NCBI GenBank assembly: GCA_040753575.1
Contig: JBFMEC010000004.1
Span: 1-36,923 of the forward strand
Direction: 5' to 3'
Source of the DNA: Nitrospirota bacterium
Lineage (GTDB): Bacteria > Nitrospirota > Thermodesulfovibrionia > Thermodesulfovibrionales > SM23-35
Length of the DNA: 36,923 bases
Shown piece by piece: positions 22,636 through 35,193 of the stretch; positions within the stretch are counted from its first letter, which is position 1; each line of letters opens with the position of its first letter. The notes beneath the pieces are model-generated. The model was given only the letters and a program-made list of their open reading frames with translations, had not been told where the DNA came from and did no database searches. A program made the position numbers and the translations under genes.

Positions 22636-24201
22636 TCATCCTAAAATAATCGGGTTCCCCTTAGTTGGAACATGCAGCTTCTTTGAATCAATATTTCTTT
22701 TGAAAAACTCGGGGTTCTCCGTATGAACGGGGATGACAAATTGTGGGTCAATAGTTTCGATGAGTTCTAATAGGTCTGGACCCGTAATGTGCCCGGATGA
22801 ATGAAACCCTTGTTCTCCATCAGGCACTTTTCCTGTATTGACATCAGGCACTCCCATGGGCTGCATCTGGAACAGGTTTAGCCAGTTTCTTAGTCTAACA
22901 ATATCGAACTTTTGTTCCTCGTCGAAAGCTTCGCTTGAAGAGTAGATATACATTGTCCCGGGTTCGGGATCAATCTCTATGAGCTCATTGATATCCCAGA
23001 AGCTAAAACAAAGGATATAATCAGCACCATCCTTTTTTACCTCTTGAGGATCAACACATCTGTGTTCATATCTGGCATATACCTGCTCTTCCCATTTATC
23101 GAGGCGCTTTGGCTCCTTATAAAGATAAACTACTTCGTCTTGCTGTGGTGGGATAATCAGGTCTGAAGCCAGCGAAGCAGCTTCCAAAAGATAAATATCT
23201 TTGGCTGTGACTACCAGCTTTCGTTTGCAGTCTTTTGCTATTTCTCGGAATGTTAAAAGGCGCTCAAGATTTCTCGGACCGAAGTCTGCTATAACGAGAC
23301 TGCTGCAGTTTTGAATAACATCAAGTGCTCTGGCATAAACCGTAGCTTCATCAATAGCACTATCCACATCGACATGAGTGCCCTCACAAATCAGAGCAAG
23401 GGGGTTCAGAGCTCTGGCTGCCTCTGCAAATGCTCTGGTAAGTGAGCTATGTTTGCCATGTGTTCTTAAATCCCCTGTATAAACGACCCTACCCTGGCTT
23501 GTTTTCAAGGCAAAAGCTGTGGCGCCGAATATTGAATGGTCTACCGGGAATGCTTTAATTGGCAAGCCCGCAATGGTTTCTACCTTGGTCAAATTACATG
23601 AGACAATATCTCTGCTGCCAGGTGTGTTTCCCCAGAATTTGCATCCTTCTTCAGAAGGGTCAAAATCGCATACCTTAAAAGGACGTTGCTGCGCTTCAAA
23701 TTTCCTATAATTACCTGACTGAAGTAGACCGTCGCTTTCTACTTTAGGAATTAGATAGCATACTTCCTTCTCAAAGTCTGATTTTGATGAGTCTTGGATT
23801 GCCTTAGCAATATATGCGGTACAAAGGCTGGACACTATTGGAATATCTTGACGAAGGAAAGAGATATATCCGCTGTGGTCTAAATGAGCGTGGGATAAAA
23901 GAACCCCATGGAGTTCAATCTTACGGATTGGATAAGGAACACGCACTCTTGACCAGATATCGATAGTCTCTATTTCTAAGTCTTGCCTATAGATACCCTG
24001 TAGAGGAGGTAGCAAGCCCATGTGTAACATGTCGAGCAGTCCTCGCCGAGGGCGTGGGACCAAGTACTCTTCAAAATACTTGTTACGAAGATTAAAATTA
24101 ATGCCGAAGTCAAAAAAGAGGTTAATTCCCCTGTCTTCCAGCAGAATTTTGTTCCCCCCTATTGTATCTGCTCCATCATATACTGTAACAGTGACCATCA
24201 T
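22636..24201 (-). CDS. Metallo-beta-lactamase/beta-CASP nuclease (RNase J-like)
   Basis: IGGNKI, FDFG, SHAHLDH, VDHS, YTGD, HSSGH and IPVH motifs. Confidence 0.88.
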   Translation of the reverse strand: MMVTVTVYDGADTIGGNKILLEDRGINLFFDFGINFNLRNKYFEEYLVPRPRRGLLDMLHMGLLPPLQGIYRQDLEIETIDIWSRVRVPYPIRKIELHGVLLSHAHLDHSGYISFLRQDIPIVSSLCTAYIAKAIQDSSKSDFEKEVCYLIPKVESDGLLQSGNYRKFEAQQRPFKVCDFDPSEEGCKFWGNTPGSRDIVSCNLTKVETIAGLPIKAFPVDHSIFGATAFALKTSQGRVVYTGDLRTHGKHSSLTRAFAEAARALNPLALICEGTHVDVDSAIDEATVYARALDVIQNCSSLVIADFGPRNLERLLTFREIAKDCKRKLVVTAKDIYLLEAASLASDLIIPPQQDEVVYLYKEPKRLDKWEEQVYARYEHRCVDPQEVKKDGADYILCFSFWDINELIEIDPEPGTMYIYSSSEAFDEEQKFDIVRLRNWLNLFQMQPMGVPDVNTGKVPDGEQGFHSSGHITGPDLLELIETIDPQFVIPVHTENPEFFKRNIDSKKLHVPTKGNPIILG

Positions 24202-25286: not shown

Positions 25287-25547
25287 TTATTTGCATAGAG
25301 AATTTTCGACTACTTGAATCTCCCCATCTGTTAGTCCATAGAGTTTATGAACAATCTGGTCGATGAGCCAGTCAGTTTTGTAGAGTTTTTCTTTCAAGGG
25401 CAAAAGTTTTGATAGGGATTTTTCGTATTCGGATCTGATGTTTTCATAAAGCTCCCTGGATTTGAGATTTGCCCCGATTCTGTTTCTGTTTTTCTCCAGA
25501 ACTTTCCAGAAGTCTTCAAAAGATAAATGTTCTTCCCTCTTTCTCAT
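25287..25547 (-). pseudogene. Orphan C-terminal fragment of a type IIG/Eco57I-like restriction-modification enzyme
   Basis: KTDWLIDQIVHKLYGLTDGEIQVVE matches the ID..VY.LYGLT.EEI..VE terminus of that family; no N-terminal part is present. Confidence 0.75.
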
Positions 25548-25649: not shown

Positions 25650-26780
25650 CTAATTATCCCCCAATAACATTTGTATCTCGTTTAATAAAATTACTTCTTT
25701 ATCCCTGTAATGTTCTGGGACGTTCAAAAAATATTCCCATGCATTATTCAATATAAGAACAATACTTGACTTTTGGACAGATGTCGAAGATTGCTGGATA
25801 TATGATTTTAATTGAATTTCCTGACATGCTTTATAAGTATACTTTGCTAAAGATTCAATTAACTGATCGGGATAGCAAAGTCTATATTCCTGTGGTTCAA
25901 TATTACCTGCTATAGACTTATAATGATTCCATTTTTCTTCCATTTTATTATTACCAATTTTTAGTAATCTCATCATTGCAAAGATTCCCCTCATACGTGA
26001 TTCATCTGAAGGATGAATAGCTCCTTCATAAAAACCTGGATAATAAATATTCCGAGTCATTCCAGCACAAAGGCGTAGATGTTGCCAGCCAAAGGCTGGA
26101 CCAGTTATATAAGTTGCAATCATATCTGATATAAATTCCTTGACCCAGCGGTCTTTCCATTGTTCAAAAAGGTGCATATATCCCTCAATATATCTGTTAG
26201 GTTTCTGTTCTCTTTTAACCCGCTGTATTTCGGCTCTGATATAATCTTTCAATTCCTCCAGAAATTTTGTAAGAAGCCTATCTTCGTATTTGTACAATAA
26301 GATATGACCTAATTCATGGCAGAGGTCAGGAAGGCCTAATAGAAAATCTGATTCCAGAGTTGATGAGCAAATCAGATTAAAGTCAGGTTTTGTCCAATAA
26401 TACTGGTTACTAAAACATGCTATTAAAGGTGGTGGTAATGGATAATTTATTTCTTTTACCAGAAGTTTACAAAACCTTGTAATCTTCTGGTCTGTCTTGT
26501 TGTAACGGGTAACGAATGGCACAGGAAAGGATTCGATGAAATGTAATCTTTCAACTAAACGATTATAGTCTTGTAAATGGTTTTGAAGTAGCTGTAAAGC
26601 GCCAAAAGCAGGGTCCTTGAGGATTTGTTGTGCTTCTATAGTTATTTTTTCGAGTCGTTCGATAATTTCACCAATATATTCTCTAACATCTTCATGATAA
26701 CTCTCTTTACTTACTAACAGCCTTAATACATCACATCTACTTAATAAGTCTATCAAAAGTCCTTGAAGGAACTGATCCAC
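25650..26780 (-). CDS. HEXXH zinc-metallopeptidase-like protein (pAgo operon gene 5)
   Basis: LCHELGHILL, downstream KEFISD (third ligand Glu) and HPSDESR, as in M48/ImmA-IrrE-like gluzincins. Confidence 0.7.
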   Translation of the reverse strand: MDQFLQGLLIDLLSRCDVLRLLVSKESYHEDVREYIGEIIERLEKITIEAQQILKDPAFGALQLLQNHLQDYNRLVERLHFIESFPVPFVTRYNKTDQKITRFCKLLVKEINYPLPPPLIACFSNQYYWTKPDFNLICSSTLESDFLLGLPDLCHELGHILLYKYEDRLLTKFLEELKDYIRAEIQRVKREQKPNRYIEGYMHLFEQWKDRWVKEFISDMIATYITGPAFGWQHLRLCAGMTRNIYYPGFYEGAIHPSDESRMRGIFAMMRLLKIGNNKMEEKWNHYKSIAGNIEPQEYRLCYPDQLIESLAKYTYKACQEIQLKSYIQQSSTSVQKSSIVLILNNAWEYFLNVPEHYRDKEVILLNEIQMLLGDN

Positions 26781-26783
26781 TTT

Positions 26784-27227
26784 TCATTTTCTCCACATCT
26801 CTCTAAATATTCGAGAAGTTTCTGAATCCGCTAAAGCACAAAGTTCGTCCAAAAATTTTATATCTTTATCAATAACTTTATCTATTCCAAGCTCAAGGTG
26901 CCTCTGTACTTCTTTTAAGTCCTGAATATAAAAATTAAATTCTCCACTCTTAGCCTCTCTAATCTTTTCGATAAAACTGCCAGGTATACCTCTTTCCACT
27001 TCTTCACCATGAAAATTTCGTGGTTTTTCAAGCAATAATAAATCCTCGATGCCATGTAGGATTTCGCATAGGTTTTCTATATTGGATTCAACATCCCTTC
27101 TATCTATTAATTCACAGCCAGGAAGTTTATAAAACAACTTTTTTACAATAATAGTTGCCTTATTAATCCGTTCTGAAAGATGTGAACTTGTTTTATATCC
27201 ATGAGACAGAATACCTAATTCACTCAT
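26784..27227 (-). CDS. Small, probably all-alpha hypothetical protein (pAgo operon gene 4)
   Basis: 147-aa ORF; its start overlaps the pAgo stop (ATGA) and it ends 3 nt before the next gene. No recognisable motif. Confidence 0.8.
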   Translation of the reverse strand: MSELGILSHGYKTSSHLSERINKATIIVKKLFYKLPGCELIDRRDVESNIENLCEILHGIEDLLLLEKPRNFHGEEVERGIPGSFIEKIREAKSGEFNFYIQDLKEVQRHLELGIDKVIDKDIKFLDELCALADSETSRIFREMWRK

Positions 27228-29593
27228 GACTTCACCTCCATATTCATTTCAGAATCATCTTCCAATTCCTCTTTTTCATCCCATTCACTTTCATAAATGG
27301 CTTCATCAAGCTCAAACTTGCTCGCAATAGGCTCTAAGAGATCATCGGCGAGCCTTATTGTAACTGGAAGCCTGCCGCACTTATCAGGGGATGACCATAT
27401 AAGTTGAGAAAGATTAAAAATATCCTCAATGACCTTTTTAATATCAAGATTCCCATCAGCTATGACAGCGTGTAAAGGTTTAACCGTGCCCTGCGATATA
27501 AAGGGGCGCCCTGTATTACAGACTATTGCCTCTTTTGAACTGAGTAAAAAATAACTGCCAAGTGTAGAATTATCATATGGAGTATCTGTCCTACCTTCAA
27601 CAAGGCGAACATGATAGGTTCGAGTTTTCCGAATTTCAACTATACCTGTTATTACGTCAGATGGTAAGATGCCTTCTCTTTTTAAAGCCTTAAAAGCATC
27701 CTGTGCACCATCTATCTCTGATAATCCTGTACGTCCATCCCTATGGATAACAATTGAACCAGGCGAAAGCTTTAAATGGCGAAGGTCTTCCTTTAATGCT
27801 TTAGAAAGAATGGTAAAAATTTGGCGACGGGAAAGCCTTTCTTTCTGTGAGCAACGATAATCTCTAAAATAACAGTCCTTTCCATTATTATAGATAAAGG
27901 TAAAACCTGCAATCTTATTTAAAACATCAATGCCGATATAAACATCGTAGTTTAATGGTGTTTTCAGTGCCCAAAGCCATTTTCTGTTAACCTGTAGTAG
28001 GCCAAAGGTGGTATTCTTGATATAAGATTTATATTTTTGTTGAAATTCCTCTTTGACATTATATCTTGTAATTCCGTTGTCAACTTGAGGGGCATAATGT
28101 TGCTTTATTTTTTGCTCTTGAGCACATTGAAATTGGAAATTAGGCCAAAGTTCCCTTTTTATATAATCATGCAGATCTGGCTTAGCATCTTCAGGTAGAA
28201 CAATCAGTGCGTAACCCTGTTTAATATTTGCGTTATCAAGGGCAATTTTTATTGCGTGAAATTGTTTGTACAGGGTTTTGCAGTTGTTATTGGAATATAC
28301 AACCCTTTTAGGGTTATAGGGATTTGGGTTTAACTTTTGAACCTCACATTTCAATCTTTCTATATAATCCTCTTGAATATCTCTTGGAAGAGTCTCTGGG
28401 GAAATAATATATTGAGCGTCAAATGGCGTGGTATTTAAAGGACCAGCATCTTTATCAAATAATAGCTTTATCCGCTCTTTACCTAAGGATAAATAGCTTA
28501 CACCATGATCTTCGCGGTTTCTACAGACGTGAAGAACCTGTCCTTTACCAAAAATCTGATCAGGAATATAGAAAAAATCCTTCTTTTTCTCTAATGGTTT
28601 TTTAGATATTTTGATAGGAATACCGTTTAAATCTGTTTTCTGGAAATAATTTTCAAGAATTTTCTCAATCCGCTCAAACCGCTCTGTAGGAGATAAAATG
28701 GTTTTCTGATGGAGTTTCCGAACTTCAGGGGCATCGGTAGAATATTTTAGCTTGCAAAGAGCTGCAGCGCCATAATACTTTTCTGATTCCTTCCCAGGAT
28801 AGCGGTAAAGAATCGCCTCACTATCAGGGTTTAAATTTCTTATATAATCTGGAGAATTATAAGGAAAATGATTCTTTGTATAGGTGTAAACATCAATAGG
28901 TTGACCAGTATTTTTATCAGGAAATCTCTGTTCTCTTATGCTTTTTCCAAGTGGATTTACCAACTGAATTTCAAACCAGTTTTTACTGTGATAGACAAGA
29001 TGTTTTCCTCTGTAATCTAAAAGTTGACGCCCGTTAGCCCTTTCCATTAGCCATAATTTATCAACGTATCTATTAACTATATCGATCGAAAGAAACAGTA
29101 TGGCATTAGCCGGCACTACAGAAAAGATAAAGCCCTCATAAATATCAACAGTAGACAAAGAGCCAAGAGATAAAGGCTCCTTCTCAAAATATCTATGAGA
29201 TCTCCCCCACAGGGAGACGTCTTTCATTAGAGGGCTACGTAAAGAGTATTCCAAAAAACTTAGCGCCACAGGTAGACTTTTTGATTCGAGCTTGTTAAAG
29301 GACAAATGGTGAGTTAGGTTCTCTGGCCTTAATTCTGCGATATGGCGGATTACCTGATATTCAGACTTTTGAATTATTGTATCCCTAGGGATCGTAAATA
29401 TGATTTCGGGCCTGGTACTTACAAGTGCTACTGGCTGTTTGAGTTCGTAAATCAAATTTTTTCGTAGCAGTTCGACATTTTTTTCGTATGTTTCATCTTC
29501 TGGAAGAGAAACTTTTACAAATCTATACTCACATTTCAAATCTGCAAGGTTTTCGATCGCAAAAAGATTAAAACAATGACGGCTCATTTTCAA
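27224..29593 (-). CDS. ago: Long prokaryotic Argonaute (N-PAZ-MID-PIWI), catalytic DEDD tetrad apparently intact
   Basis: 789 aa. PIWI motifs VYIGIDV, QKERL, IVIHRDG, IVEIRK, QGTVKPL, DIFNLSQL.W and RLPVTIRLAD; MID-like LHDYIK...FQC. Start is TTG 29593 or ATG 29587. Confidence 0.92.
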   Translation of the reverse strand: MKMSRHCFNLFAIENLADLKCEYRFVKVSLPEDETYEKNVELLRKNLIYELKQPVALVSTRPEIIFTIPRDTIIQKSEYQVIRHIAELRPENLTHHLSFNKLESKSLPVALSFLEYSLRSPLMKDVSLWGRSHRYFEKEPLSLGSLSTVDIYEGFIFSVVPANAILFLSIDIVNRYVDKLWLMERANGRQLLDYRGKHLVYHSKNWFEIQLVNPLGKSIREQRFPDKNTGQPIDVYTYTKNHFPYNSPDYIRNLNPDSEAILYRYPGKESEKYYGAAALCKLKYSTDAPEVRKLHQKTILSPTERFERIEKILENYFQKTDLNGIPIKISKKPLEKKKDFFYIPDQIFGKGQVLHVCRNREDHGVSYLSLGKERIKLLFDKDAGPLNTTPFDAQYIISPETLPRDIQEDYIERLKCEVQKLNPNPYNPKRVVYSNNNCKTLYKQFHAIKIALDNANIKQGYALIVLPEDAKPDLHDYIKRELWPNFQFQCAQEQKIKQHYAPQVDNGITRYNVKEEFQQKYKSYIKNTTFGLLQVNRKWLWALKTPLNYDVYIGIDVLNKIAGFTFIYNNGKDCYFRDYRCSQKERLSRRQIFTILSKALKEDLRHLKLSPGSIVIHRDGRTGLSEIDGAQDAFKALKREGILPSDVITGIVEIRKTRTYHVRLVEGRTDTPYDNSTLGSYFLLSSKEAIVCNTGRPFISQGTVKPLHAVIADGNLDIKKVIEDIFNLSQLIWSSPDKCGRLPVTIRLADDLLEPIASKFELDEAIYESEWDEKEELEDDSEMNMEVKS

Positions 29594-30455
29594 ACCCTAT
29601 GCAAAGCTTTTTAAAATTACAATATTTACAAGTCATCGGACTATTTGCAAAGTCGAAGTCCTGGGTGTCCTTTAAAAATTTAAGCTTTGAACTACTCCGA
29701 AAAATAAAATCTTCAGCATATTCTAAATCATCAGTTGTAAAGGAGTAATGTGTAATCTCGCCTTTAAGTAAATTTGCCTCATATACTTCTGGTATGACTC
29801 CATATCTTTTATAGCCAGCCAAAGAATAAATCAACATTTGCTTTGAATTATCAGATGTTTCGCTGTCCGCTACTTTCCAGTCAATTATAATTGGTCTTTT
29901 TTCATTAAAAAGAAAGAGGTCTATATATGATTCGACAGTTATTACATCGAGTTTGAATAAAAGCGATTTTTGTATTTCAAAGTCGGAAGATTTATAAAGC
30001 ATGTTTAGTAAATCTTTCCACTTACTTAAGTTATCCATACATCTTATGACATTAGAAAATATTTCTGCTATTTCTATATCATTAATTTCTTCTCCATATT
30101 CGTGTTCAAAAAGGGCACAAAATTCGCAGTTTGCAGAAGATTTACTCATTTTGGGTTCGCGATACCTTCTGGCTTTTGAAAAAGAAAACTGTCTTTTCCC
30201 TAGGTCTAAAATTTGATTTGTTACAGTATCCAGATTGAGAGTTTGTTTATTCTTAATTTCTGGTAACACATAGTATTCAATTCCCTTTTCTACAAGACTG
30301 CCCTGCCATTTTTTACAGTTTCGAAGTTGCTTTAAAATATATGCTTCTCTTCGAAAGGGTTCTTTCTGAGCATTATGGTGTGCTAAAACATGGGCAAAAT
30401 AATACTGCCTGTTGCATCTACGAAAAGCGTTGTGGGCTGATATCGACCATTTCAT
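29568..30455 (-). CDS. Cas4/AddB-like PD-(D/E)XK nuclease with a putative 4Fe-4S cluster
   Basis: WS.S....F..C.RQYYF at the N-terminus, YIDL, IIDWK, QMLIY, and C-terminal CKYCNFKKLC. Confidence 0.88.
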   Translation of the reverse strand: MKWSISAHNAFRRCNRQYYFAHVLAHHNAQKEPFRREAYILKQLRNCKKWQGSLVEKGIEYYVLPEIKNKQTLNLDTVTNQILDLGKRQFSFSKARRYREPKMSKSSANCEFCALFEHEYGEEINDIEIAEIFSNVIRCMDNLSKWKDLLNMLYKSSDFEIQKSLLFKLDVITVESYIDLFLFNEKRPIIIDWKVADSETSDNSKQMLIYSLAGYKRYGVIPEVYEANLLKGEITHYSFTTDDLEYAEDFIFRSSSKLKFLKDTQDFDFANSPMTCKYCNFKKLCIGFENEPSLF

Positions 30456-30799
30456 GGTTTTTGTTTTTTCTTTTTTTCCAAGTAGGTTAAGAAATCATCC
30501 CATTCTTCTGGCTTTTTAATAAATTCAGTAGCCTTCCTAAAAAATTGCAATGCTTTTTTATCCGATACTACCTTAGAAAGACTCCCAGGGACTTTATTGG
30601 CAAGCCCTAAAAGTTCAATCTCATCGGCATCAAGGGCCTCAGCTAAGGCTTGAATAGTCTTTATAGATGGGGTATAAGGCAATTGGTCATTCTCTATTTT
30701 GCTTAAATAGGTAAAATCTAATTGAACAATCTCGGCTAACTGCCTTTGTGTCAATTTTTTCTTTTTACGTAAATCACGAATTTTTCGCCCAAATGTCAT
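30452..30799 (-). CDS. XRE-family helix-turn-helix regulator (pAgo operon gene 1)
   Basis: MTFGRKIRDLRKKKKLTQRQLAE...TYLSKIEN...PS...LAEAL. Start chosen at ATG 30799; the stop overlaps the nuclease start (ATGA). Confidence 0.92.
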   Translation of the reverse strand: MTFGRKIRDLRKKKKLTQRQLAEIVQLDFTYLSKIENDQLPYTPSIKTIQALAEALDADEIELLGLANKVPGSLSKVVSDKKALQFFRKATEFIKKPEEWDDFLTYLEKKKKQKP

Positions 30800-30805
30800 A
30801 TATAA

Positions 30806-30834
30806 TTGATAACATATCTTGATGTTGAAGTCAA
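30806..30834 (-). promoter_or_regulatory. Putative promoter/operator of the pAgo operon (possibly leaderless)
   Basis: TTGACT-N17-TATCAA with an extended TG, 6 nt before the XRE ATG; inverted repeat AACAT-N6-ATGTT in the spacer. Confidence 0.5.
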
Positions 30835-30871
30835 GTGCAATTTTAATAGGAGGCACCATATTTCCGTTAAT

Positions 30872-33800
30872 TTATCCAAACAATTCCCCCTGCAACTTCT
30901 GTAAAATCTTGTTCTGCAATTTCTGGCTTGCGATGGAGGAAATGTAGTCGGAGATTATTCGGTCTATTCTCTCCTTAAGCTCTTTAAGTTCAGGAAGGAT
31001 TTTTAATATATATGATTCATCTTTTGGAACCTTTACCACCTCAAGTCCTGATTCAAGCCATATCTTCAAATACTCTGCCTCTACTTCACTATGGCACTCT
31101 ATATGATCTTTATCTGATGAGAGAAGCCACCCAGACCCCTTCAAAAAGTCTTTTTTAATCTGAATTTCTTTTGTGGGATGAAAAAGCTTGACTGTTTTAA
31201 GGCTCTTCTGGTTGAGAATTTTTTCTCTGTAAAAATGACCAAGAAGTTTGTCGCCAAGTTTTTCTTTTATTGTTCTTGTTAAAAGTTCAACATCGATACC
31301 TTCTTTTGCCTTTCCTTTTTTGCCAAAGCTTTTTGCCTTCTCTATCCTTGACCTCACAAGGTCAACAACTGCTCGATAAACCTCAAGCTGTTCATCCTCC
31401 GTCAATCCAAGAATGTCACCCATGATAATTTTGTCAAGTTCTCGACGGTCAGGCTTAACCTTCTCAAGAAAGACTTCATCAGGGGAAACAGATCCAAGCT
31501 CATCAAATATGGATAGAACCTCTCGCGTTTTTAATTTCTCAAAAACAGAGAAGAGTTTTACGTTTGAGATAATTTTCTGAGTAGGAACTCCAAGCATTTT
31601 TAGCCAATATACGTTTGTGTATACCGCACCTTCTCCAAGGTTAGTAATACCACTTATTTCAATTAGTAAAGGAATGATTGTGCTATTTAAAAATGCCAAT
31701 ACAATGTCGTAGTCTTTTTTATTGTGAACTTTGATGAAGAAAAACCTTTTATCACCCCATGTATTTTGCGTTTCATAGACAGCAAATCGGACATTGTAAG
31801 CATCAGACCAAACAAAGTCGGGCTTATCCCAAATTCCCAAATCATACCATCTTTCACCGCGGCTTGCACATGTTGGTCTTAAATGATAGCCTTGTTGTTC
31901 ACCTTTTTTAATCCACCGTAATATATTTGTTTTACTAAGTGCTTTTTTATCTTTATGAATCATTAAGACACGAAATTTTAAATCTTTCCGTTTAACAGTT
32001 ATTGACTTGCATTCCTTTGAACTCTTGATGATGTAATTCGGTAACCATTCACCTTTCTCATTCTTATGCATCCAGAACTCTTTTTCTATGCCTCTCTTTT
32101 TTATTTCTTCTTCAGTAAGATAAAAAAACTCATTAGCTCCTGTCTTAATGCCAAATCTCACATCTGCTTTTTCTTTTAAAGGAACAAGTTTATCTTTGCC
32201 TTTCTCAAGAATCTTAAAGAATACCTCTGGGGCCCTGAGATATTTCCCCCATTTAGAGCCAGTGTATTTATCTTCCTCAGCATCAAAACCTTCTTCCCAT
32301 AGTTCACTTTGCTTTTTGGGATAGATTCTATACTCATCGGTCTGATAAAAATTACTATGAATAAGAATCGTCCTTTTTAGTTTTTCGATGGCATCAAGTC
32401 TTTGCTTTTGTTTCTCCCACATGTCATGGGCAGGAGGAATAAAATGCCTTAATGGCTTAAAAAGATAGACAAACCTTACAAGGTTTTCATCCCTTTCTTT
32501 CTGGTCAGTACACTTTTCAAGGATTATTATGCAGGTGTTAATATCTGCATCCTCAAACCATCGCTCAACCTTAGATTCAATTATCACAACGATTTTGTAG
32601 TTCTTAAGAAATAGCTCTTGAAGTCCCTTCCCATAATCAACATCCATCCATGAATTCGAGACTATAAAGCCAAACCGTCCCCCATCTTTTAAAAACTTTG
32701 TCCCATGAACAAAGAAATAGGCATGAATGCCGGCCCTCTTTGAAATATCAGCCAGTTTCCTTTTCCCTTCAAAAAGGGCTTTGTCTATCATGGATTCTTT
32801 GTAACTCTCTTTCCCTGTGATTTCTGTAATCTCCTCCTGCCTTGTGTAAGGAGGGTTTCCGACAACACAGTCAACAGCCTTTGGATAGGGAATAAGGATC
32901 TTTTTTCCGCTGAGGGTTGCAAGTCCTTTTTTTCGGGCTTCATCTCCACCCATCCTTTCCATTGGAGATAAATTAAAAAAATCTTCATTCAATATTTGAG
33001 GATAATTTTCATCCACCGAAAGGTCATTTACAGCAAGATTTATAGTTGAAAGATGGGCAGGGAACTTGGCAATGTCAACACCCCATAGAGTTTTCAATAT
33101 TTCTTGATGAGGTGTACGAAGATTCATCAGTCTTTTATGCTGATAAGCCCTTACAAGAAAAGTTCCTGCACCACACGCCGGGTCAACCACTGTATCATCT
33201 TCATGCTTAATACAAAATCCCAAGATAAGGTCAACAATATCAGGATTGGTGAAATATTGACCTAAATTATGCCTTTCTTCCTGTGGTATTAATCTCTCAA
33301 AGATTCTTCCGATAATATCAAAGCCTATCTTAGAGAAATCATATCTCTTGAGAATTTTGATAAGCTCTTTTATTTCCTCTACAACTGCCCTGTTTTCTGG
33401 AAAGGCAATCTGGTCAATAAAATCAGTGCTGTATATGGTTTCATAATCGATTTCCTTAAGGACATAATCAAAATACCCCTGAAGGTTTGTTTGCAGAAGC
33501 CCCCCTTTTGTGAGGTCATCTGGAATAGTAAGAGAATCAAGCTGTCCTGATCTTTTGGACTGGAGCACATCATAAAAGAGGATTTTGTTTATGAGAAGGT
33601 ATGCAGTCTGTCTCGCAGCCTTTTCAAAGTCACTATCCGAATAGGTAAACGTCCATTGCTGTTCAACAAACCATTTTTTGAATTTCTTTAAGAAATCAGT
33701 ATTCTTATGTGCTTCGTCTCTTATAATTGGTTTGTAATATCTCGCAAGACGGTATATCTTTTCTTGAAGTCTGAATATTAAGAATTCATCTATTGGTAAG

Positions 33801-34366
33801 AGTGGCTCTGGTTTTATCCCAGTATGAATCCTGACAAGTTCTTCAAGAAATTTTTCAATGCCTTTGAGGATAGTATTTTTAAATCTTGCATCTTCAATAT
33901 CGTCTAAGTTTTCAATGCTTGATAGAGGGAATTTATCAATGATCTGTCTCTCTTCAGGCTCCATCCTGTTTGCCTTTTCAGTGTTAAACCAGATGAGCCA
34001 TTGAAAGTTTGAAGTCGCAAAGTATTTTGCCTTTCTCTTATTTGCCTTTTCCCTTGCAGGGTTCTTTAACTCCTTTTCATCAAATGGGCTGAAATACGGG
34101 GGCTTCAGTTCAATGAGGCATAGTACCCTCTCACTTTTTGGACTTTCAAAAATAACTATATCAGGTTGTTTTCTATCAGCGCCAACGGTCTCCTGTTCAG
34201 CAATACCAAGAGGCAGGTTTCTTTCTTTAATTATCTGATTTATCCACTCAACAAACTTCTGGTTGGCAGTTCGTTCAGTCTTGTGGACACCTATATCAAA
34301 TACTGATGCCTTGAAAATATCTGTTCTGGTCTTACTTGAGATTTTGCCCACTTTTTTACTTTTCAT
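30872..34366 (-). CDS. Type IIG-like fused restriction endonuclease / N6-adenine methyltransferase
   Basis: N-terminal PD...IELK nuclease motif, GQYFT, DPACGAGTFL (motif I), VGNPPY (motif IV), and a C-terminal TRD region (VRFGIKTGANEFF). Confidence 0.92.
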   Translation of the reverse strand: MKSKKVGKISSKTRTDIFKASVFDIGVHKTERTANQKFVEWINQIIKERNLPLGIAEQETVGADRKQPDIVIFESPKSERVLCLIELKPPYFSPFDEKELKNPAREKANKRKAKYFATSNFQWLIWFNTEKANRMEPEERQIIDKFPLSSIENLDDIEDARFKNTILKGIEKFLEELVRIHTGIKPEPLLPIDEFLIFRLQEKIYRLARYYKPIIRDEAHKNTDFLKKFKKWFVEQQWTFTYSDSDFEKAARQTAYLLINKILFYDVLQSKRSGQLDSLTIPDDLTKGGLLQTNLQGYFDYVLKEIDYETIYSTDFIDQIAFPENRAVVEEIKELIKILKRYDFSKIGFDIIGRIFERLIPQEERHNLGQYFTNPDIVDLILGFCIKHEDDTVVDPACGAGTFLVRAYQHKRLMNLRTPHQEILKTLWGVDIAKFPAHLSTINLAVNDLSVDENYPQILNEDFFNLSPMERMGGDEARKKGLATLSGKKILIPYPKAVDCVVGNPPYTRQEEITEITGKESYKESMIDKALFEGKRKLADISKRAGIHAYFFVHGTKFLKDGGRFGFIVSNSWMDVDYGKGLQELFLKNYKIVVIIESKVERWFEDADINTCIIILEKCTDQKERDENLVRFVYLFKPLRHFIPPAHDMWEKQKQRLDAIEKLKRTILIHSNFYQTDEYRIYPKKQSELWEEGFDAEEDKYTGSKWGKYLRAPEVFFKILEKGKDKLVPLKEKADVRFGIKTGANEFFYLTEEEIKKRGIEKEFWMHKNEKGEWLPNYIIKSSKECKSITVKRKDLKFRVLMIHKDKKALSKTNILRWIKKGEQQGYHLRPTCASRGERWYDLGIWDKPDFVWSDAYNVRFAVYETQNTWGDKRFFFIKVHNKKDYDIVLAFLNSTIIPLLIEISGITNLGEGAVYTNVYWLKMLGVPTQKIISNVKLFSVFEKLKTREVLSIFDELGSVSPDEVFLEKVKPDRRELDKIIMGDILGLTEDEQLEVYRAVVDLVRSRIEKAKSFGKKGKAKEGIDVELLTRTIKEKLGDKLLGHFYREKILNQKSLKTVKLFHPTKEIQIKKDFLKGSGWLLSSDKDHIECHSEVEAEYLKIWLESGLEVVKVPKDESYILKILPELKELKERIDRIISDYISSIASQKLQNKILQKLQGELFG

Positions 34367-34649
34367 AATCTTTTAAGACCTGATTAACAATTCTTCGGGC
34401 AATCTCAAAAGCGGCAGCAATTCTTATGATCTTTACATCTCCTAACCCCTTTATCTCAAGAAATTTACTCAGGGGCTGGTTTGCCATGCCTTTAAAAGAG
34501 CCAAATTTACGGAGAATCTCTTTGGCAACATCCTCTGCTGTTTTGCCTTTAGTGCCCGTAGAAATGAGAATTGCCAGAAGCTCCGCATCTGTTAACGATT
34601 CCGCACCAAGTTCTCTCAGTTTTCCGCCTGGATGCATCCATGTTTTCAT
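34356..34649 (-). CDS. Stand-alone RadC N-terminal (UPF0758 HhH) domain protein, copy 1
   Basis: P..KL...GAESLTDAELLAILI.TG and IKGLG..K..I.AAFEI.RR; no JAB/MPN domain. Confidence 0.85.
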   Translation of the reverse strand: MKTWMHPGGKLRELGAESLTDAELLAILISTGTKGKTAEDVAKEILRKFGSFKGMANQPLSKFLEIKGLGDVKIIRIAAAFEIARRIVNQVLKDYEK

Positions 34650-34667
34650 AAAATTCCTTCTACGGAC

Positions 34668-34721
34668 TTATTTAACCACATGGCCTAATTGTATGTCTAT
34701 TAATGTGGATCAATTAGGGAG
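34668..34721. repeat. 54-bp junction repeat, copy 1
   Basis: TTATTTAACCACATGGCCTAATTGTATGTCTATTAATGTGGATCAATTAGGGAG; internal inverted repeat CCTAATTG-N19-CAATTAGG. Confidence 0.95.
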
Positions 34722-34782
34722 GTCTGGGGGCAGGGGCTTGAAAAACTGAAGGTTTTTCAGTGAGCTTGGTTTCCTTCATTTG

Positions 34783-35193
34783 TCATTTCCTCATCTTCAG
34801 AAAAGCCTTTGGTGTAGTGATTTTAATGCCCCTAAACTGCTTTAGAGATAAAAAACTTTTGTCGCCTGTTATTATAAACTTTGCATTAGCCGTGAGTGCA
34901 CATTCTATAAACTTGTTATCTTTTGGATCAGGTGTAACCTTTAGGTTCACTTTTGGTGTGTAAAAATCTGAATGTGCCAGAACAAATTCCAAAATTTCTA
35001 TTTGAAGTTTTATTGGGAAACTAAGTTTCGGGTACGAAAGCGCGACAAAAAGCTCGTTAAAGATTTCTTCTGAGATACAGTTTCTTATTTCTTCTTTTTC
35101 TAATAGCTCAACAACTTCTAAAGGTCTGCCTCCCCATCCAAAGGCAGAAATGAAAATATTTGTATCTATTATTGCTTTTTCGCTCTTGCCCAC
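34783..35193 (-). CDS. PIN-domain toxin (PIN_3 type)
   Basis: IIDTNIFISA, DPKDNKFIECA and IITGD motifs. Confidence 0.92.
   Translation of the reverse strand: MGKSEKAIIDTNIFISAFGWGGRPLEVVELLEKEEIRNCISEEIFNELFVALSYPKLSFPIKLQIEILEFVLAHSDFYTPKVNLKVTPDPKDNKFIECALTANAKFIITGDKSFLSLKQFRGIKITTPKAFLKMRK

Follow-up and report, generated by a model that had tools for sequence, protein, structure and literature searches.

A small helical protein and a predicted metallopeptidase as conserved partners of Argonautes of the DNA-guided, RNA-targeting clade

The DNA considered here, called the window throughout, is a stretch of 36,923 nt from contig JBFMEC010000004.1 of a Nitrospirota bacterium (GCA_040753575.1). 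On its minus strand it carries what appears from the sequence to be a complete copy of a conserved operon built around DNA-guided, RNA-targeting prokaryotic Argonautes (pAgos), with the catalytic motifs of all three predicted enzymes intact. Five same-strand open reading frames (ORFs) lie there in the order XRE-family helix-turn-helix (HTH) regulator, Cas4-like nuclease, pAgo, a 147-aa protein (p147) and a 376-aa protein (p376), and the same layout recurs in more than 100 loci, which come from numerous phyla of bacteria and from some archaea. The last two products are near-obligatory, unstudied partners of the pAgo and lie outside described families. RNA-targeting pAgos (PliAgo, PnyAgo, MbpAgo and VbAgo) have so far been studied as isolated enzymes and tools, and their natural function has been called an open question (PMC9360449). 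Their genes are virtually never found without those for a Cas4-family nuclease, p147 and a p376 that is catalytically intact by sequence, and this near-obligatory association provides a concrete, testable handle on pAgo biology. A protease-controlled transcriptional switch, in which p376 would cleave the XRE repressor, is tentatively taken as the best reading of the operon.

Should p376 control expression through the repressor in this way, DNA-guided, RNA-targeting pAgo systems would join the proteolytically controlled defence operons and would add to them both a peptidase architecture and a partner protein that are new. A peptidase driven by the pAgo would instead make this the first Argonaute system to signal through a protease. 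In both cases, work on the pAgo expressed by itself is likely to overlook a good part of the system's operation.

The operon and its Argonaute-nuclease pair

A first-pass annotation of this DNA, made from the letters alone, had proposed five co-oriented, coupled genes, and direct reading of the sequence bears out every junction. The XRE gene (30452..30799, 115 aa, within an ORF open to 30859) overlaps the gene for the Cas4-family PD-(D/E)XK nuclease (29568..30455, 295 aa) in an ATGA at 30455-30452. The stop codon of the nuclease gene, TAA at 29570-29568, lies inside the frame of the long pAgo (27224..29593, 789 aa), giving an overlap of 26 nt if translation begins at TTG 29593 or of 20 nt if ATG 29587 is used, in which case the pAgo has 787 residues. 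A second ATGA, at 27227-27224, joins pAgo to p147 (26784..27227), and p147 is followed after a 3-nt gap (TGA, three bases, GTG at 26786-26778) by p376 (25650..26780). The end coordinate previously assigned to the operon, 30834, fits neither start considered for the XRE gene (30799 and 30859).

The pAgo matches the PADLOC model pAgo_II at 6.9e-157, and a comparison with all PDB sequences returned seven distinct matches, among them 9wmd (MbpAgo, 6.3e-103), 8xih (1.1e-102), PliAgo (7r8k, 3.7e-70) and VbAgo (5.1e-34). Entry 9WMD describes MbpAgo cleaving target RNA with a DNA guide, and PliAgo and VbAgo likewise use DNA guides on RNA targets (PMC9360449). By sequence the protein belongs to the MbpAgo/PnyAgo/PliAgo clade and, to judge from its characterised relatives, would target RNA. 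Because the closest solved relatives, MbpAgo, PliAgo and VbAgo, act on RNA by means of DNA guides, the earlier proposal that this pAgo cleaves invading DNA is unlikely to be correct. The accompanying description of an active long pAgo with a DEDX tetrad agrees with the sequence, in which D556, E585, D619 and D750 form a complete DEDD tetrad that is kept in orthologues (DEDD in 29 of 30, DEDH in the remaining one). The guide-binding pocket of the MID domain contains H475, K479 and Q489, a combination common to the nearest relatives and to the Bacteroidota proteins; in most other loci the pocket differs and is like that reported for the PliAgo group. With reported motifs of HKQK for the PnyAgo group and RHSY for the PliAgo group (PMC9360449), the pocket in the window appears to be of the canonical PnyAgo type, three of the four HKQK residues having been assigned.

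The nuclease is of the Argonaute-associated "ACE" type, matching the PADLOC model Aga_Cas4-like_Nuc at 3.4e-55, a second Aga_Cas4-like model at 1.7e-36 and Pfam PDDEXK_1 at 5e-9. One N-terminal and three C-terminal cysteines (14, 276, 279 and 285) are present together with a DxK motif, and a search by sequence found no solved relative. Such nucleases have been placed beside pAgos before. Lisitskaya et al. (2022, PMC9360449) reported that the genes of DNA-guided, RNA-targeting pAgos follow that of a PD-(D/E)XK nuclease, a distant relative of Cas4, that the PliAgo group is additionally accompanied by a putative HTH regulator and the PnyAgo group by a sigma-70 family factor, and that the operons of the clade have "the same gene composition". 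The window resembles the PliAgo/RslAgo and PnyAgo/HpeAgo/MbpAgo operons in its pAgo clade, in the Cas4-like nuclease preceding the pAgo and in the HTH protein that heads the operon, and it joins an XRE regulator, as reported for the PliAgo group, to an H-K-Q pocket like that of the PnyAgo group.

In the cyanobacterial APACE1 systems, long-A pAgos cooperate with the Cas4-family nuclease ACE1 in DNA interference, the ACE2 systems being uncharacterised (Mol Cell 2025, PMC12094033). The window shares with APACE1 a long pAgo, catalytically active by prediction, that is preceded by a Cas4-family nuclease with the one-plus-three cysteine pattern and the DxK motif. Unlike APACE1, which comprises two genes and cuts DNA, it has a pAgo whose solved relatives cut RNA and contains three further conserved genes; the main text of the APACE1 paper makes no mention of XRE, of a peptidase or of a helix-turn-helix.

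The suggestion that the five-gene layout had not been described holds in part. Its HTH, nuclease and pAgo portion has been known since 2022 (PMC9360449), and what is uncatalogued is p147 and p376. Among the models of PADLOC-DB 2.0.0 only pAgo_II and Aga_Cas4-like_Nuc match, and no system catalogued there matches the layout in full. The text of PMC9360449 names the nuclease, the regulator and the sigma factor and does not discuss p147 or p376, which its figure or supplement may show. Among the papers returned by searches on accessory proteins of pAgos, none has a title or abstract about a peptidase or a small helical partner, although the figures and supplements of PMC9360449, PMC6299218 and PMC12094033 may show the two genes as neighbours without a name, and the term "peptidase" is absent from the text, figures and supplements aside, of the pAgo papers searched by term, PMC9360449 included.

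Conservation and features of p147 and p376

The association of the last two genes with the pAgo was assessed from both directions. A scan seeded with p376 and limited to one genome per species gave 58 loci, six of which were set aside for having too little upstream DNA. Genes at these loci were called with hidden Markov models (HMMs) iterated on the loci's own ORFs, and the loci span Chloroflexota, Bacteroidota, Acidobacteriota, Planctomycetota, Verrucomicrobiota, Gemmatimonadota, Spirochaetota, Proteobacteria and Nitrososphaerales archaea. Cas4 and pAgo lie directly upstream in 44 of the 52 judgeable loci, with visible pseudogenisation in three of the 44. One further locus (L009) holds fragments only, one (L039) has a pAgo without a Cas4 match, and six (L008, L030, L036, L049, L052 and L057) have neither. 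Conversely, an alignment of six pAgos from the window's subclade was used to collect 60 metagenome loci, a set that leans to that subclade and includes some near-duplicate contigs; where a judgement was possible, p147 was present in 59/59, p376 in 53/53, Cas4 in 44/45 and an adjacent XRE-like ORF in 31/41. The recurrence of one gene order in both sets goes well past what chance would produce. The fourth and fifth genes therefore belong with the pAgo, as had been supposed, and are not found mostly apart from it.

Pairwise divergences were compared among 38 complete loci. The Spearman coefficient is 0.89 for p376 and pAgo, 0.89 for p376 and Cas4 and 0.90 for Cas4 and pAgo, and 0.73-0.77 for XRE and the other large genes, the pairs in all these comparisons not being independent. 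The Bacteroidota operon has six genes, encoding a sigma factor of the extracytoplasmic function (ECF) type (Sigma70_r4_2, ~1e-10), a ~197-aa XRE-like protein, Cas4, pAgo, p147 and p376.

The six loci without Cas4 and pAgo retain cassettes with intact frames, arranged as XRE-p147-p376 in L008 and L057 and as sigma-XRE-like-p147-p376 in L030, L036, L049 and L052. Two such copies from Fibrella encode p376 proteins that are 56% identical, with a ratio of nonsynonymous to synonymous substitution rates (dN/dS) of 0.20 at saturated dS. In five genomes with pAgo-less cassettes a search of the remaining sequence found no pAgo of this clade; the same pAgo model detected a pAgo in 3 of 301 Bacteroidota genomes, the positive case included. 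Persistence without pAgo under purifying selection points to a function of the regulator-p147-p376 unit in its own right. The convergent genes downstream of these cassettes are large and of protease type, encoding a caspase-like Peptidase_C14 protein in L036 (9201-11345), a subtilase and an AAA ATPase in L049 (9123-12516) and proteins without assigned names in L052 (9175-12581). A fixed alternative cargo taking the place of the pAgo was considered and rejected, as the neighbours differ from one cassette to another (caspase-like; subtilase and AAA; GAF/HAMP).

Both proteins are labelled "hypothetical protein" in RefSeq/GenBank plasmid records, and neither gives a match beyond chance-level scores in Pfam, PADLOC (E up to 0.01), NCBIfam or PHROGs. 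Three sets of motifs stand out in p376: an HELGH helix (H155, E156, H159), a helix bearing a glutamate (E215) and an HP.D..R element (H256, P257, D259, R262). In an alignment of 98 sequences H155, E156, E215, H256 and P257 are invariant and H159, D152, D219, D259 and R262 are at least 90% conserved; the motif columns were also read in an alignment of 24 sequences. The AlphaFold2 model, with a predicted local distance difference test (pLDDT) score of 97.0, starts with a helical N-terminal region, followed by three short strands (119-138), by the HEXXH helix (151-164) and by a long helix that carries E215, with helices only after residue 138 and an all-helical C-terminal half. The protein is accordingly predicted to be a zinc metallopeptidase of the HEXXH+Glu zincin type, with a minimal core and two added helical domains.

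Structural comparison in the Atlas places p376 among close, unnamed clusters, with template modelling (TM) scores of 0.80-0.92 by query. A profile search with the p376 alignment against PDB sequences gave chance-level helical matches only. When the 98 members were compared with Pfam at E up to 1, Peptidase_M78 (PF06114) was the commonest match (7/98, best 7.7e-4, below threshold), with M48 in two members and WLM in two. Profile-profile alignment with hhalign, for which 11 M78 and 14 M48 proteins from genomes related to that of the window served as references, gave a probability of 76.5 (P 2.2e-5) for M78 over residues 119-222, a region that takes in the sheet as well as the HEXXH and Glu helices; beyond an insertion of 27 residues, E215 aligns with the glutamate of the "E..AN.FA" helix of M78. 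Corresponding probabilities were 2.9 for M48, 0.1 for an unrelated XRE alignment and 0.3 for the p147 alignment. These comparisons suggest a divergent zincin whose core is remotely nearest to that of ImmA/IrrE/CapP (M78) and which lies outside that family. Assignment to M48 or HtpX-like peptidases was rejected on the hhalign probability of 2.9, and membership of CapP/IrrE on the lack of a GAF domain and of a family-level score; a scan for PF06114 at 1e-8 found nothing in the window's genome. The family itself is sizeable, with 115 members at 90% clustering, none of which has a precomputed Pfam domain, and 454 representative clusters at E up to 0.001, 165 of them at 1e-30 or better.

The AlphaFold2 model of p147 is a confident helical bundle (pLDDT 93.3), for which no match was found in the PDB and no usable match in the Atlas. 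Across 42 aligned sequences Met1 never varies and Ser2 hardly does, the next residue is Asp or Glu, and the C-terminus contains a conserved LD..L...LD.E....FRKLR-like motif. A match to the p147 HMM is lacking in three Rhodobacterales loci, in one of which (L034) a 117-aa ORF with a Met-Ser start occupies the p147 slot.

Possible roles of the p147-p376 pair

The regulator that heads the operon matches Pfam HTH_3 at 8.5e-14, and its best PADLOC model is capH (1.2e-11), with other HTH models close behind. Its start is most likely ATG 30799, giving 115 residues, rather than 30859, because orthologues begin at that methionine and because in the closest relative of the window locus (L062) the upstream ATG is replaced by ACG and the supposed extension contains a 2-nt indel. 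Upstream of ATG 30799 the DNA is almost identical in L062. A candidate promoter was read there by eye, TTGACT, a 17-nt spacer and TG-n-TATCAA, ending 8 nt before the ATG, and the conserved stretch 30800..30850 on the minus strand is accordingly put forward as a putative promoter and operator that would give a leaderless XRE mRNA. A consensus scan for promoters and terminators returned sites no more frequent than in shuffled sequence, the promoter read by eye not being among them, and a repeat finder returned nothing upstream of XRE. A search for RNA runs covering the locus turned up none. Beyond its N-terminal HTH the protein has a C-terminal helical region that is conserved in an alignment of 31 orthologues, its first helix bearing FFRK at residues 86-89.

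This anatomy recalls a known class of switch. CapP, IrrE and ImmA cleave XRE-type repressors in the C-terminal domain, switching on genes for defence, repair or mobile elements (bioRxiv 10.1101/2022.04.27.489752, 10.64898/2026.05.16.725639). Like CapH/CapP, like DdrO/IrrE and also like ImmR/ImmA, the operon in the window brings together an XRE protein whose C-terminal region is conserved and a HEXXH+Glu peptidase, and, as with CapH/CapP, the module controls or accompanies a defence operon. In the mechanism proposed here, the Cas4-family nuclease would supply small single-stranded DNA, which the pAgo would load and use to cut complementary invader RNA, both roles being suggested by characterised relatives. 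From the anatomy of the locus, XRE would repress the operon at a promoter lying immediately upstream of the leaderless start of its own gene. The remaining two proteins would form a proteolytic control module, in which p376 cleaves XRE in its C-terminal domain, with FFRK 86-89 as a candidate site (compare F82-R83 in CapH; bioRxiv 10.1101/2022.04.27.489752), and thereby switches the operon on. A sensor or inhibitor acting in trans, p147 would restrain p376 until a signal such as single-stranded DNA or another infection cue is received, and so supply in trans the sensing or inhibiting role that CapP has in cis. Such a switch is favoured because an XRE protein with a conserved C-terminal FFRK helix and an M78-like peptidase share one operon, and because the trio of regulator, p147 and p376 persists without pAgo. 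The idea of a protease-based effector or regulatory arm, as first put forward, is thereby narrowed: an effector is only one option, and the M78-like core and the pAgo-less cassettes favour a regulatory or autonomous role.

A number of observations weigh against this switch. The regulator is not its most constant component: the 10 of 41 loci without an adjacent XRE retain p147 and p376, which are more constant than the regulator in the pAgo-seeded loci, and these ten include one locus with a divergent HTH-fusion protein and another with an HTH-like protein of 511 aa upstream. In defence systems it is usually the optional regulators that are less constant. In the window the repressor and peptidase genes are not adjacent, p376 sitting at the far end of the operon and not beside the repressor as CapP does, and the ECF sigma factor added in Bacteroidota is not needed by simple repressor cleavage. 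Resemblance to M78 appears only moderate. p376 falls under the curated Peptidase_M78 threshold and has no PADLOC match at all, Foldseek with its model gave nothing significant and no peptidase in the PDB or BFVD, and its nearest named relatives in the Atlas (M48/U49, ArdC-type, YgjP/SprT-type and M78-containing zincins) reach TM scores of just 0.26-0.37 by query. Unlike CapP and IrrE, the predicted model has no central HTH-like domain or linker, no cysteine-switch loop and no GAF domain, there being no strands after residue 138. The spacing between H159 and E215 is 56 residues, compared with 29 in CapP, and there is a long insertion between the zinc ligands; p376 further differs from CapP in its extra N- and C-terminal helical domains and in coming with p147. 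Two distant homologues, one (P0201, 609 aa) with a C-terminal caspase-like CHAT domain (4.3e-9) and one (P0226, 799 aa) with a second HEXXH-containing region, show the p376 fold in other protease contexts and hint at protease cascades. A predicted complex of p376, p147 and XRE, run without controls, gave XRE a score of 0.00 against a mark of 0.32, which speaks neither for nor against binding.

In a rival and doubtful arrangement the pair would be core partners acting downstream of the pAgo, and binding or cutting of target RNA by the guide-loaded pAgo would release or activate p376 to cleave a host or regulatory protein, leading to growth arrest or a transcriptional response. The operon would then be comparable, on the Argonaute side, to type III-E Craspase or CalpL-CalpT-CalpS. 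It may follow the same logic, in which a guided nuclease that targets RNA is encoded with a protease and a small protein, and in Bacteroidota also with an ECF sigma factor; there is no homology to either, p376 being by prediction a zincin and not a CHAT or Lon protease. Sigma factors also occur in Craspase and Calp loci. Such a role is in keeping with the constancy of p147 and p376 after the pAgo relative to XRE, with the translationally coupled pAgo/p147 and p147/p376 junctions, with a p376 divergence that follows pAgo and Cas4 no less closely than these follow one another, and with the distant homologue fused to CHAT. Against it stand the 6 of 52 loci that keep an intact regulator, p147 and p376 under purifying selection without Cas4-pAgo, which implies that the pair works without pAgo, and the complete tetrad of the pAgo, itself a nuclease unlike the inactive, effector-dependent pAgos. 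The failure to find pAgo-p147 or p147-p376 fusions among longer proteins, or p147 in any fused form, is weak evidence on the same side. A more specific version, also unlikely, is that recognition of invader RNA by the pAgo frees or activates p147-p376 to cleave either a host protein or a transcription factor, which would be XRE or, in Bacteroidota, a partner of anti-sigma type. If true, guide-directed RNA sensing would be a proteolytic switch for transcription or dormancy, and the operon would parallel Craspase and CalpL/T/S on the Argonaute side, with parts unrelated to theirs that are retained by bacteria and archaea alike.

In a further reading the pair is an autonomous protease-inhibitor module, in which p376, as a Lit/U49-like peptidase that is toxic or senses infection, would be restrained by p147, whose N-terminus, Ser after removal of Met, could plug the zinc site. 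The module would then be a second, abortive-infection layer that shares only operon and regulator with Cas4-pAgo. This reading is improbable. It fails to explain why the pair is kept by every pAgo of the clade among the judgeable pAgo-seeded loci. Persistence without pAgo under purifying selection, the tight p147-p376 junction (a 3-nt gap here and 4-nt overlaps in many loci), the invariant Met1 and nearly invariant Ser2 of p147, and the presence of Peptidase_U49/M48 clusters among the nearest named Atlas rows, at low TM, are all consistent with it, as are the defence-like surroundings of pAgo-less cassettes, with their caspase-like, subtilase and AAA genes. Conversely, hhalign favours M78 over M48, p147 matches no inhibitor or antitoxin by sequence or by fold, and the inhibitor idea is an analogy with metalloprotease inhibitors.

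It is very improbable that p376 keeps house for the nucleic-acid machinery by processing or clearing proteins on nucleic acid, for instance trimming the acidic C-terminal tail of the pAgo, turning over Cas4 or acting as an SprT/WLM-like DNA-dependent protease with p147 as adaptor: pAgos of the clade do have acidic C-terminal tails, the VbAgo and MbpAgo papers concern C-terminus- or dimer-dependent control, 2 of 98 family members have weak WLM matches and SprT-like, YgjP-like and ArdC-type Atlas rows reach TM 0.26-0.29 by query, but all these similarities are at chance-like levels, pAgo-less cassettes have nothing to process, and PliAgo, RslAgo, PnyAgo and HpeAgo are active when purified alone from E. 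coli (PMC9360449).

Distribution, divergence and neighbouring genes

The operon is sporadically distributed. Among 41 genomes of the family and order to which the window's genome belongs, a full p376 occurs in that genome alone, and two others have matches of 37 and 28 residues. The 37-residue match, to the C-terminus of p376 (L060, G009:C24:26765-26875, E 1.3e-7), is possibly a remnant of a lost copy. Five plasmid records carry the operon, including that of the conjugative plasmid pRUNSL03 of Runella slithyformis DSM 19594, on which the RslAgo operon consists of the same five genes, the last three annotated as "hypothetical protein". Searches of phage records and of IMG/VR contigs returned no relatives of p376. 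On pRUNSL03 the RslAgo operon is followed directly downstream (L122 8450-10629) by genes for a multiubiquitin-domain protein, a ThiF/E1-like protein and a DUF6527 protein, and a similar gene set is found among operons with CapH/CapP-like regulators (bioRxiv 10.1101/2022.04.27.489752).

The closest relative, L062 (4747-9935), is 91% identical to the window in XRE and 90% in Cas4, and 72%, 74% and 76% identical in pAgo, p147 and p376, an unevenness that suggests either recombination inside the operon or very different constraints on its parts. Elsewhere the operon shows signs of decay. In L009 (6515-7557) the first ~108 residues of Cas4 are joined near the last ~190 of pAgo, with XRE, p147 and p376 intact, and in L047, L055 and L056 operon genes are split into several frames.

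The surroundings in the window are consistent with a small defence island, as the first-pass annotation had it. From ~24 kb to the end of the window the GC content is 0.33-0.39, compared with 0.40-0.44 over most of the left part, which is occupied by metabolic genes; the right part holds a gene for a type IIG restriction-methyltransferase and one for a PIN-domain protein. The former (30872..34366, minus strand; Pfam N6_Mtase and Eco57I, PADLOC REase_MTase_IIG 1.9e-49) is a neighbour of the operon, ending 12 nt before the long version of the XRE ORF. A type IIG gene 58-62% identical to it lies directly upstream of XRE in a Dehalococcoidia genome (L002, 1-2400) and in a metagenome contig (L067, 439-3756), both with operons of the window's subclade, and the type IIG system and the Argonaute operon may travel together. 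The PIN-domain gene (34783-35193, minus strand; PIN_3 2.9e-19) adjoins a 107-aa ORF on the plus strand (34426-34749), with which it possibly forms a toxin-antitoxin pair at the edge of the island.

Just downstream of p376 is an 86-aa ORF (25287-25547) with a weak match to the C-terminal end of a type IIG model (PADLOC 1.7e-5). It is 60% identical to an ORF at the same position in L062 (10047-10274) and could be either a remnant or a conserved small gene. A metallo-beta-lactamase/RMMBL (RNase J-like) gene (22636-24201) is situated some 1.4 kb downstream of p376; in the Nitrosotalea locus L039 (9776-11131) a 34% identical RMMBL gene is convergent with and adjoins p376, and its presence near p376 in both loci may be a coincidence.

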